In this document: positions 53,400 to 56,005 of the stretch, one piece after another
Layout: every line of letters starts with the position of its first letter
Position numbering within the stretch: position 1 is the stretch's first letter
Assembly (NCBI RefSeq): GCF_988243305.1
Contig: NZ_OZ547136.1
Strand: one strand, 5' to 3'
DNA length: 64,000 nucleotides
Translations under genes and position numbers: made by a program
The notes under the pieces: generated by a model
What the model was told of the DNA's origin: nothing
Seen by the model: only the letters and a program-made list of their open reading frames with translations
Databases searched by the model: none

Positions 53400-53713
53400 A
53401 ACGACCTACGTTAATTACCTCATTGACGGCATGAAGTGTATCAAAATGAAATGAACAGGATATGTGCGACCACTCACAAATTAACTTTCAATACTTTCCA
53501 TGGTATCGTTATTCCAATTAAATATCTTTATATATCAATAAGTTAAAGTATAAAAATCAGCATAAACCCTGATTTTTGTCAAAAAAAATGACGGGGATAA
53601 CCATATTTTATGGCGATAACATCATTCGTTATGTGGTTAATACAAAAAAGGGGCTGAGACCATATTTCAAGCAATTACCGGATAATTACCAGGCAAATTT
53701 TGAGTTAAATTTA

Positions 53714-53932
53714 ATGAGCAAGTTCTCAAATTTTATTATAAATAAATCATTTTCAGCGATAAATAATGCGGCACGTCACATTTTTTCACGCTATTTGTTG
53801 GAGAACAAACATTTATTTTATCAATATGTTAAAATTTCGAATACAGGTATTGATCATCTCGAACAATTGATTAACGTCAACTTTTTCTCTTCTGACAGGA
53901 CGTCATTTTGTGAATGCAATCGTTTTCCATAA
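53714..53932 (+). CDS. tdcR: small tdc regulatory protein TdcR
   Basis: 72-aa product (MSKFSNFIINKSF...) inside the 118-aa track ORF, divergent from tdcA; AT-rich. Confidence 0.65.
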   Translation: MSKFSNFIINKSFSAINNAARHIFSRYLLENKHLFYQYVKISNTGIDHLEQLINVNFFSSDRTSFCECNRFP

Positions 53933-54234
53933 ATTCTTCTCCCCTCATAGGTGACGAATAGCATTTTGTGTTGAGGATCACAAAACGAATAATTGCTGGT
54001 CGCCGCGATAAGGTCAGCCAAAGACAACAAGGGGAATTTTCACAGAGCTTTTGATCGGCGTAGGCCACAGAATGTTGCTTCGTTTACTGTAATGCCGGGT
54101 AAATGAGCGTTTTTTGATAGTGCGAAAGTGCCGTGTGAGGAAAATAAGCATCTATTATTGTTTGTCATGATGACAAGGCAGGCATCAATGAAAGGCTTCC
54201 CAATTGCACATATTTTCACCCTTCAATCCCGCCA

Positions 54235-54726
54235 ATGCACGCAGTGGTTAACAATCACAACAGAAATATTGATTATTGGACGGTAAAAAGAAAGTTTGCA
54301 GAAATTGTCTCCACCAATGACGTTAATAAAATATACAGTATAAGTAATGAACTGCGGAGAGTATTATCTGCAATTACTGCATTGAACTTCTATCAAGGCG
54401 ATGTTCCTTCTGTCATGATTCGAATCCAACCGGAAAATATGAGTCCATTCATCATAGATATTTCTACAGGAGAACATGACGATTATATCATACAAACATT
54501 AGATGTAGGCACTTTTGCACCTTTTGGCGAACAATGTACTTGCTCAGCCGTCAATAAAAAAGAGCTGGAGTGTATTAAGGAGACGATTTCTAAGTATTGT
54601 GCAAAATTCACCCGAAAAGAAGCCATCTTAACCCCCCCTACGTACTTTAATAAAACCTCCATTCCTTCAGATTGTTGGCAAATTCTCTTTTTTTCACCCG
54701 ATCATTTTAATAATGATTTTTATTGA
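54235..54726 (+). CDS. yhaB: uncharacterised protein YhaB
   Basis: 163-aa ORF from first Met in low-GC DNA; K-12 synteny; true start uncertain. Confidence 0.65.
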   Translation: MHAVVNNHNRNIDYWTVKRKFAEIVSTNDVNKIYSISNELRRVLSAITALNFYQGDVPSVMIRIQPENMSPFIIDISTGEHDDYIIQTLDVGTFAPFGEQCTCSAVNKKELECIKETISKYCAKFTRKEAILTPPTYFNKTSIPSDCWQILFFSPDHFNNDFY

Positions 54727-54747
54727 TTATTTATAAAGGATAAAATA

Positions 54748-55935
54748 ATGTCCCCTGTTTCATCAATTGGTAATGATATTAGTAGTGATTTAGCCCGTCG
54801 AAAAATGAATGATCTTCCTGAAAGCCCCATAGGAAATAACCTCGAAGCACTAGCACCAGGAATAGAAAAACTAAAACGGACCTCTATTGAAATGGTCACT
54901 TTACTTAACGCGTTACAACCAGGTGGGAAATGTGTTATCACTGGTGATTTTCAAAAAGAATTAGCGTACTTACAAAATGTAATTCTTTATAATGACTCGT
55001 CTCTTCGTATGGATTTTTTTGGTTATAACGCCCGAATTATTCAACGATCAGACAATACCTGTGAACTTACAATTAATGAACCGTTAAAAAACCAGGAAAT
55101 ATCCACAGGCAATATCAATGTTAATCGCCCATTGAAAGACATTTACAATGAAATCAGGAGATTGAACGTAATCTTTAGTTGTGGGACTGGAGGTATAGTT
55201 GATCTATCCTCTCTGGACTTACGGAATGTCGATTTAGAACTTTATGATTTTACAGATAAACATATGGCCAATACAATTTTAAATCCTTTTAAATTGGATG
55301 ACACAGATTTTACTAATGCCAACATGTTTCAGGTAAATTTCGTTAGTTCAAAACAAAACGCCACAATCTCATGGGATTATTTGCTAAAAATAACGCCTGT
55401 TATAACAAGCATTAACGATATGTATTCTGAAGAAAAAATTAAGCTTGTCGAAAGTTGTTTAAATGCGCTTGGAGATATTACCGAAGAACAATTAAAAATT
55501 ATGAGACTTGCAATTATAGAATCTATACCAAGAGCAACTCTAACAGATCAATTAGAAAATGAATTAACAAAAGAAATATATAAAAGCTCATCGAAAATTA
55601 ACAATTACTTGAGCAGAATTAAATTGCCAGAGATGAAAGTATTCTCATCAGAAAAAATAGATTATTACATCGATATAATCATTAAAGATTATGAAAGCGT
55701 CAAAGAAAATGCTTATCTGATCGTTCCAAAAATTAATTACAATACAGATTTAGACATAGAGGACTCTAGCTCAGAGGAATTCCTTCCAGATAATACACCC
55801 GAGAAAGACGAAAATTCTCCAGACAATTGCTTTGAGGTCGTAAAATATAACACATATGAAGCTTATAACTCAGAGAAGCAATATTTTACCAGAGAGGACT
55901 ATACGTATGATTACGACCTTTTAAATGCAATATAG
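54748..55935 (+). CDS. yhaC: uncharacterised protein YhaC with pentapeptide-repeat-like central segment
   Basis: 395-aa low-GC ORF; segment DLSSLDLRNVDLELYDFTDKHMANTILNPFKLDDTDFTNANMFQVNF resembles pentapeptide repeats. Confidence 0.8.
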   Translation: MSPVSSIGNDISSDLARRKMNDLPESPIGNNLEALAPGIEKLKRTSIEMVTLLNALQPGGKCVITGDFQKELAYLQNVILYNDSSLRMDFFGYNARIIQRSDNTCELTINEPLKNQEISTGNINVNRPLKDIYNEIRRLNVIFSCGTGGIVDLSSLDLRNVDLELYDFTDKHMANTILNPFKLDDTDFTNANMFQVNFVSSKQNATISWDYLLKITPVITSINDMYSEEKIKLVESCLNALGDITEEQLKIMRLAIIESIPRATLTDQLENELTKEIYKSSSKINNYLSRIKLPEMKVFSSEKIDYYIDIIIKDYESVKENAYLIVPKINYNTDLDIEDSSSEEFLPDNTPEKDENSPDNCFEVVKYNTYEAYNSEKQYFTREDYTYDYDLLNAI

Positions 55936-56005
55936 ACTTAATAATTTCTTACAAAGTCTATTATTAATACCGTAGATATTTATTCATCTTACACTATGCT
56001 CCAAA

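Follow-up and report, generated by a model that had tools for sequence, protein, structure and literature searches.

The AT-rich tdcR-yhaB-yhaC locus of Escherichia coli: composition, age, allelic variation and a short pentapeptide-like run in YhaC

Three genes, tdcR, yhaB and yhaC, lie between the tdc operon and rnpB on the chromosome of Escherichia coli K-12. H-NS was found on the tdcA/tdcR spacer and inside yhaC in three compiled K-12 chromatin immunoprecipitation-microarray (ChIP-chip) data sets, the same spacer and the interior of yhaC are 2 of the 78 K-12 "promoter islands", and the tdcR-yhaB-yhaC genes are listed as predicted foreign (PMC3661553). The tdcA-tdcR spacer is described as an H-NS-bound promoter island of K-12 in two sources (PMC3661553; PMC3946193). 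The yhaB and yhaC genes are given as a single operon (PMC12218254; PMC3946193), which has been assigned to a young phylostratum (PMC12218254) and for which a sigma-70 promoter was assigned by genomic systematic evolution of ligands by exponential enrichment (SELEX) (PMC3946193). In addition, yhaC is among the top 14 genes of a positive-selection scan, and one of its Gene Ontology terms is given as "response to DNA damage" (PMC9110714).

The corresponding block was analyzed in a 64,000-nucleotide stretch of contig NZ_OZ547136.1 (assembly GCF_988243305.1), the whole of which is referred to as the window; the block occupies positions 53400-55940. A sequence-only reading had placed a low-GC tdcR-yhaB-yhaC islet between the tdc operon and rnpB and had called its two yha genes uncharacterised and under-studied rather than new. 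NCBIfam matches and RefSeq annotation agree on the genes and their position, and a literature search found no characterisation of YhaB or YhaC; the locus is already catalogued, and it is under-studied rather than new. With moderate confidence, we interpret the block as the known chromosomal tdcR-yhaBC locus of E. coli: an old, Escherichia-restricted, AT-rich and H-NS-silenced region in which yhaB and yhaC form a real, dispensable two-gene operon.

Composition and age of the block

The block is the lowest-GC stretch of the 64 kb. Its G+C content (GC) of 0.341 compares with 0.508 in the window as a whole and corresponds to a z score of -8.5 relative to non-overlapping 2541-bp windows (mean, 0.516; standard deviation, 0.021; minimum, 0.449). 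The left GC edge is the tdcA start codon (53399/53400), and the right edge lies at approximately 56000, directly before the rnpB terminator, where GC climbs from 0.25 to 0.49-0.63. Codon usage was deviant as well. GC at third codon positions is 0.28 in yhaC, 0.32 in tdcR and 0.33 in yhaB, compared with 0.42-0.70 in the remaining genes of the window. On a codon-adaptation index built from 37 other long open reading frames (ORFs) of the window, yhaC scored 0.50 (z = -3.4), under the background minimum and the most deviant value of 40 genes, while yhaB scored 0.56 (z = -2.3) and tdcR 0.60 (z = -1.6). The GC and codon-adaptation check that accompanied the sequence-only reading thus separated the block from the rest of the window, and the marked AT-richness reported there was borne out. 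Elsewhere in the 64 kb, GC falls below 40% in just three 500-bp windows, at approximately 39001-39500, 52251-52750 and 60751-61250, the second of which spans the tdcB-tdcA junction.

With no other part of the window as low in GC or as deviant in codon usage, the block could be a classical horizontally acquired islet, in which foreign AT-rich yhaBC (perhaps with tdcR) was inserted beside rnpB and then silenced by H-NS. Older composition methods also predicted these genes to be foreign, and H-NS is bound there (PMC3661553). Two relatives, E. ruysiae and Escherichia sp. E4930, carry tdcR followed directly by repeats of the rnpB 3' end and rnpB, with no yhaBC; their homology to the window ends near 54000-54050 and resumes at 55971, leaving approximately 1.9 kb missing. 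RNA genes are common insertion sites of islands.

However, no donor was detected. No YhaB or YhaC homologue outside E. coli/Shigella was present among 1.84 billion representative proteins, and tblastn of a phage collection with YhaB and YhaC gave no match. The same search of a plasmid collection gave four matches, all from E. coli and all non-mobilisable, of which three were chromosome-sized (4.8-4.9 Mb) and one was 354 kb. A one-genome-per-species scan recovered only two E. coli-like contigs misbinned in metagenome-assembled genomes. These genomes were labelled Collinsella sp. and uncultured Bacteroides sp. (yhaC identity, 93% and 86%), and the presence of yhaC in them is almost certainly binning contamination. 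If the species representative of E. coli in the scanned collection is the type strain, as is presumed, its deletion scar at yhaBC explains the absence of the E. coli genes from the scan.

Signs of mobility were likewise missing. No integrase, transposase, insertion sequence (IS) or tRNA was found among the ORFs and RNAs of the block, and integration of an island at the rnpB 3' end was rejected, since alignment of the left junction with that end scored 15, against a mean of 15.2 for shuffled sequence. The equivalent interval of E. albertii keeps a tdcR-like region at 81% identity and, in synteny, 125 bp left over from the 5' end of yhaB, which align to window positions 54213-54333 (E = 2.5e-13; identity, 73.6%). 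This remnant indicates that yhaB predates the split between E. coli and E. albertii, that sister species lack it through loss, and that any transfer would have to be older than that split. Horizontal acquisition had been suggested from the AT-richness of the block; its compositional side stood, codon usage included, while the lack of a donor and of a mobility signature and the age of the block did not fit it. A horizontal origin is thus a compositional inference only, with no donor, and we consider an acquired islet possible but on balance unlikely.

Allelic depth, selection and loss of yhaB and yhaC

The yhaC gene (54748-55935, plus strand) is intact and encodes 395 amino acids. It matches the NCBIfam equivalog model NF007262 across residues 1-395 of 395 (852.7 bits against a cut-off of 765; E = 3.3e-257). 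The annotated yhaB frame (54188-54726, plus strand) encodes 179 amino acids. In the window, a T5 run is shortened to T4 (54213-54216), as seen in an alignment with two E. coli genomes, and this 1-bp deletion breaks yhaB at codon 9. The remaining 163-amino-acid ORF (54235-54726) begins at an internal ATG at 54235, the first 16 codons of the 179-amino-acid frame being out of frame. The exact 81-bp frameshift sequence of the window was present in 0 of 4387 matching complete E. coli genomes. The 163-amino-acid YhaB of the sequence-only reading is therefore a frameshifted form private to the window sequence, not an ordinary variant, and its cause is either a mutation unique to this sequence or a sequencing error in the homopolymer.

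YhaB homologues of 77-99% identity carry the PF27690/UCP004546 label and were found in E. coli/Shigella only. The large protein clusters P0076 (3287 members) and P0078 have a different YhaB C-terminus (…FFHPIILIMIFIDYL), which fits a recurrent frameshift close to the 3' end of yhaB, plausibly at the T run at 54688-54695. Paralogy of YhaB and YhaC was rejected (profile-profile comparison probability, 0.1%).

Selection was estimated from pairwise Nei-Gojobori rates of nonsynonymous (dN) and synonymous (dS) substitution. The dN/dS ratio was 0.27-0.39 for yhaC (dS, 0.20-0.56) and 0.11-0.24 for yhaB (dS, 0.10-0.49), compared with 0-0.05 for the flanking tdcA, tdcB and garK genes (dS, 0.05-0.12). 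The deepest pair of yhaC alleles differs by 270 substitutions at 1170 aligned sites (23%) and by one in-frame 18-bp gap. When these substitutions were placed at random, 10 premature stops were expected and the ORF stayed open in 1e-4 of trials. Collectively, the low dN/dS and the open frame under simulation indicate that yhaB and yhaC are real coding genes under relaxed purifying selection.

The depth of the haplotypes was absent from the sequence-only reading, as was the recurrent loss of yhaBC. In comparison with other E. coli, the window is 97-100% identical in tdcB, tdcA, rnpB and garK but 72-97% identical across the islet. The yhaC allele of the window is matched at 99% identity or higher in 117 genomes, at 95-99% in 1053 and at 90-95% in 3145, and mosaic YhaC alleles exist (for example, P0028). 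At the same locus, approximately 19 of 5426 genomes carry a deep allele with 62% protein identity in YhaC and 77% in YhaB. For the deep yhaC haplotypes, dS reaches 0.56-0.63, a level that the flanking genes show when E. coli is compared with E. ruysiae (0.35-0.59) or E. albertii (0.42-0.79). Descent of the deep haplotype from E. ruysiae or E. albertii by introgression was unsupported; in the tdcR-proximal part that they share, this haplotype still resembles the allele of the window more than that of either species.

Synonymous divergence at the between-species level, beside flanks at 0.05-0.12 within E. coli, is one argument for a conflict locus under balancing or diversifying selection, encoding a two-protein module, for example a sensor or decoy based on the small beta-helix and facing phages, competitors or the host, that is lost when costly. 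The mosaic alleles, the concentration of variability on the outward pentapeptide positions and the tail of YhaC, the independent recurrent losses and the pentapeptide-TIR fusion found among the profile matches point the same way, as does the rank of yhaC in the positive-selection scan (PMC9110714). However, no segment of yhaC had a dN/dS clearly above 1, and the value of approximately 0.9-1 in the tail fits an absence of constraint equally well. The published ranking may partly reflect, and be inflated by, recombination among deep alleles. The best matches in PADLOC-DB 2.0 (E = 0.007 and 0.011; 11-15 bits) were noise, as were all those in PHROGs; no enzymatic domain was found, and the locus is fixed, vertically inherited and outside defence islands. 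The deep haplotype is also rare and could be a relic or an introgression. A conflict locus of this kind is therefore unlikely, and that yhaBC is a conflict module (anti-phage, inter-bacterial or host-facing) held by long-term balancing selection, with haplotypes as old as the Escherichia species splits, its fast-changing residues on the outward side of a miniature beta-helix and in the acidic tail, and its loss from entire lineages such as that of the type strain, is quite improbable.

Loss of the genes is common. The region was matched in 5408 of 5426 complete E. coli genomes and was near full length in 4316; approximately 80% of complete genomes keep a full-length yhaC. One two-part deletion scar is shared by 1062 of the 5426 genomes (19.6%), the type strain ATCC 11775 included. 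It removes 54290-55016 and 55080-55891, leaving 34 yhaB codons and small pieces of yhaC, and lies at 4789-4955 in comparison locus L002. The shared scar probably marks one large lineage, presumably B2. Further lesions are one IS1 insertion, one larger IS1-associated deletion and an internal yhaC stop in the genome closest to the window.

These lesions, together with the yhaB frameshift of the window and the common frameshift variants of the YhaB C-terminus, would also be found if yhaB and yhaC were non-functional relics, either decaying or spurious ORFs in AT-rich junk DNA; deletion in approximately 20% of genomes, H-NS silencing and the lack of homologues or confident folds agree with this. 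Against it stand the dN/dS values, well under 1 for both genes, a 395-codon ORF kept open across 23% divergence (P of approximately 1e-4) with its sole indel in frame, the perfect conservation of the repeat centres and the retention of full-length yhaC noted above. We regard non-functional relics as improbable.

The pentapeptide run of YhaC

The sequence-only reading had pointed to a central pentapeptide-like run and an acidic C-terminus in the 395-residue YhaC, and both features were confirmed. The run spans residues 151-200 (55198-55347, plus strand) and comprises ten units in unbroken register, VDLSS LDLRN VDLEL YDFTD KHMAN TILNP FKLDD TDFTN ANMFQ VNFVS, with L, F or M at each centre. Of 200,000 shuffled versions of YhaC, 1 contained a period-5 run of at least 10 L/F/M residues. 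The register breaks on both sides, so that 50 of the 395 residues are pentapeptide-like; the other approximately 345 match nothing. Across 11 YhaC alleles, down to 62% overall identity, the pentapeptide centres are unchanged, and the most variable positions are +1 and +2, the outward-facing ones of known pentapeptide beta-helices.

Relationship to pentapeptide-repeat proteins was also seen in profile searches. When a profile of the YhaC alleles was compared with the 1.84 billion representative proteins, the only matches beyond YhaC and its fragments were long, repeatedly matched proteins, confined to query positions of approximately 140-210 (E = 3e-10 to 1e-3). All eight of the matches checked are strong pentapeptide-repeat proteins by Pfam, and one (P0140) is a pentapeptide-TIR fusion. 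Sequence and profile searches of the PDB gave pentapeptide chains only marginally (E = 0.05-1.2). A match of the YhaC N-terminus to methylenetetrahydrofolate dehydrogenase in the PDB (15 bits; E = 0.013) was treated as chance. Residues 151-200 are predicted to form a short beta-helix of approximately 2.5 coils. The ten-unit length and the sub-threshold Pfam scores imply that YhaC is not a canonical pentapeptide-repeat protein; of the claimed resemblance, the run itself is statistically real, while canonical membership of the family is not supported. As judged from sequence, the pentapeptide module of YhaC is genuine but very short.

The acidic, aromatic-rich tail covers residues 323-395 (55714-55932, plus strand; isoelectric point [pI], 4.05; 18 D/E against 5 K/R). 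Codons 326-375 within it are near-neutral between deep alleles (dN, 0.50; dS, 0.54), and the C-terminal tip, residues 385-393 with the pattern YTY(D/N)YDLLN, is conserved in the allele alignment. YhaC as a whole has a pI of 4.5 and no hydrophobic segment (maximum KD19 hydropathy, approximately 1.0), and both YhaB and YhaC are predicted to be soluble and acidic. The structure-prediction check proposed by the sequence-only reading yielded little: AlphaFold2 models reached a mean predicted local distance difference test (pLDDT) score of 34.7 for YhaC (11 alleles), with no confident segment, and 35.9 for YhaB (9 alleles).

That YhaC is a Qnr/MfpA-like, topoisomerase-protecting DNA mimic, or a PipB2-like type III effector with YhaB as its chaperone, is very unlikely: the pentapeptide stretch, the acidity of YhaC, the quoted DNA-damage term and the resemblance of a small upstream gene in AT-rich, H-NS-bound DNA to effector loci are outweighed by a run of only 10 pentapeptides (approximately 2.5 coils) where Qnr and MfpA contain several tens, by searches of solved pentapeptide proteins and effectors in which no match was significant (best E = 0.05-1), by the retention of YhaC in MC1061, a derivative of K-12, which is without a working type III system, by the absence of the genes from E. 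albertii, and by YhaB, for which nothing supports a chaperone role and whose model is unusable.

Regulatory sequences, interpretation and comparison with described systems

H-NS-type silencing, suggested on the basis of AT-richness, agrees with the published ChIP-chip occupancy in K-12 (PMC3661553). The divergent tdcA-tdcR promoter spacer (53400-53713) is AT-rich (GC, 0.25-0.37 per 100 bp). Its first approximately 100 bp, which lie on the side of the tdc operon promoter and contain TGTGCGACCACTCACA, show high conservation among species of Escherichia; in a five-sequence alignment, identity was 85-97% in columns 1-100 and 67-91% beyond. Promoter-like hexamers numbered 17 in the block, against an expectation of 10.7 +/- 3.5.

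An FNR-type site, AACAATTGATTAACGTCAACTTTT, lies in the 3' part of tdcR (53862-53885) and exactly matches the published K-12 sequence for an FNR ChIP-chip peak assigned to yhaB (PMC1802558). The spacer between tdcR and yhaB contains a CRP-type palindrome, TTTGTGTTGAGGATCACAAAA (53965-53985), which matches the K-12 sequence of an in vitro CRP footprint for yhaB (PMC12871828). A K-12 position in the same spacer, 3,267,652, is mutated in a table from gallium-resistance evolution and lies a few bases from the CRP-site coordinate. The palindrome with its flanks (53958-53994) is near-invariant in E. ruysiae, E4930 and E. albertii, with one G/T difference inside the palindrome, and it probably serves something other than, or besides, yhaBC. 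The proposed sigma-70 promoter of yhaBC (54114-54145, plus strand) consists of TTGATA, a 20-nucleotide spacer and GAAAAT. Consistent with a bicistronic arrangement, 21 nucleotides separate the yhaB stop from the yhaC start, and a Shine-Dalgarno sequence, AAGGA (54736-54740, plus strand), lies 7 nucleotides upstream of the yhaC ATG.

The 72-residue core of tdcR (53714-53932, plus strand) matches NCBIfam NF008507 over model positions 1-72 of 72 (168.3 bits against a cut-off of 100; E = 3.7e-50), and its position divergently upstream of tdcA agrees with the RefSeq annotation. A longer ORF of 118 amino acids over this core starts at a TTG at 53576. TdcR homologues were found in E. coli/Shigella, E. 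ruysiae and Escherichia sp. E4930 only. Between the window and E. ruysiae, dN was 0.124 and dS 0.135 (dN/dS of approximately 0.9), and within E. coli dN was 0.023-0.029 with a dS of 0 in 2 of 3 pairwise comparisons, all low numbers from a small gene. In E. albertii, the ATG start is ATA. The tdcR gene thus shows little protein-level constraint and may not be constrained as a protein. Its last 27 nucleotides (approximately 53900-53926, ACGTCATTTTGTGAATGCAATCGTTTT), however, are invariant in five Escherichia sequences, third codon positions included, and this invariance at the 3' end of a gene with weak protein constraint points to a function at the DNA or RNA level. A second block, GGGATAACCATATTTTATGGCGATAAC (53594-53621), upstream of tdcR, is also invariant in the five sequences, and the AT-rich DNA around it is fast-evolving.

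The order of genes in RefSeq annotation of matching E. coli genomes is tdcA, tdcR, yhaB, yhaC, rnpB and garK. On the right flank, outside the islet, rnpB, the RNA of RNase P, occupies 56043-56419 on the minus strand (Rfam RF00010; 318.6 bits; E = 1.2e-104), and a permissive-threshold Rfam scan found no other RNA. A terminator scan placed the rnpB terminator, a GC-rich palindrome flanked by an A run and, on the opposite side, a T run, at 56008-56035 (minus strand); this palindrome could additionally stop yhaC transcription. In other genomes, the spacer between yhaC and rnpB (55936-56042 in the window) holds a 113-bp tandem repeat of the rnpB 3' end and terminator in variable copy number, with approximately 4 copies in the laboratory strain TUM22775, 2 in the closest genome and no extra copy in the window (comparison loci L001, 5600-6190, and L004, 5630-5800). 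The repeats are also present in E. ruysiae and Escherichia sp. E4930.

Under the interpretation that we favor, an old, Escherichia-restricted and dispensable operon, H-NS would coat and largely silence the tdcR-yhaB-yhaC block, and yhaB and yhaC would be transcribed together from a weak sigma-70 promoter downstream of the CRP and FNR sites. The operon would be expressed only once silencing is relieved, plausibly in CRP- and FNR-active, anaerobic, gut-like conditions, as for the neighbouring tdc operon. Its products would be soluble acidic proteins, dispensable and under relaxed purifying selection. YhaC would be built from a lineage-specific N-terminal domain (residues 1 to approximately 145), the ten-unit beta-helix (151-200), a helical part (approximately 205-320) and a disordered acidic tail with its conserved tip. 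The beta-helix and the tip may bind a macromolecular partner, possibly YhaB, with the variable outward-facing residues of the beta-helix as the recognition face. The locus as a whole evolves as one haplotype block; its alleles are very deep, and it has been lost repeatedly.

Several observations weigh against this interpretation. Conservation of the CRP-type site in species that do not carry yhaBC makes its target uncertain, and the site may not serve yhaBC. The yhaBC promoter was missed by a consensus scan, and its 20-nucleotide spacer is poor, which argues for a weak promoter. The H-NS, CRP and FNR data stem from K-12 papers, not from the strain of the window. YhaC scored below the Pfam gathering thresholds (14.9 against 38 bits for PF13599 and 12.8 against 20.2 bits for PF00805), and no function-bearing domain was found in YhaC or YhaB. 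The AlphaFold2 models of both proteins are unusable, so the layout of YhaC outside residues 151-200 is drawn from low-confidence secondary structure and conservation patterns.

The finding is correct but ordinary: a catalogued, uncharacterised E. coli locus was re-identified, and as it stands this matters little. The details added are a real but tiny pentapeptide module, purifying selection despite H-NS silencing, a block that is ancient in Escherichia and not a recent import, haplotypes several-fold deeper than the surrounding genome, and recurrent loss. Just two points are mildly surprising: how much deeper the yhaBC haplotypes are than the flanks, and the possible lack of protein constraint on tdcR. 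The yhaBC pair is nevertheless a reasonable candidate for work that seeks functions of H-NS-silenced orphan genes or interprets calls of positive selection in yhaC.

Compared with described systems, the closest is the K-12 locus itself, in which the same three genes, in unchanged order, lie between tdcA and rnpB. The window differs from it in yhaC, whose DNA is 92.0% identical to that of the K-12 derivative MC1061, and in the private 1-bp frameshift of yhaB; it also has no extra 113-bp repeats between yhaC and rnpB. Like the H-NS-bound promoter islands of K-12, the block is AT-rich, has an apparent excess of promoter-like hexamers and holds genes predicted to be foreign (PMC3661553). Set beside targets of xenogeneic silencing, it is ancient within Escherichia and shows no sign of mobility. 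YhaC resembles pentapeptide-repeat proteins (PF00805/PF13599; Np275/Np276, Qnr and MfpA) in its tandem A(D/N)LXX-like units, hydrophobic centres and pattern of inward and outward conservation, and reciprocal profile matches join it to true members of that group. It differs from them in having a run of 50 residues in 395 amino acids that stays below the Pfam thresholds and a fold that is predicted only; compared with Qnr and MfpA, the run is far too short for rod-like DNA mimicry. Finally, yhaBC is similar to orphan E. coli pairs, such as yjbL-yjbM and those of cryptic prophages (PMC12218254), in its young phylostratum, its homogeneous two-gene operon and its lack of homologues beyond the genus. 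Unlike those pairs, it lies outside prophages, has within-species haplotypes much deeper than its flanks and encodes a recognisable repeat module.

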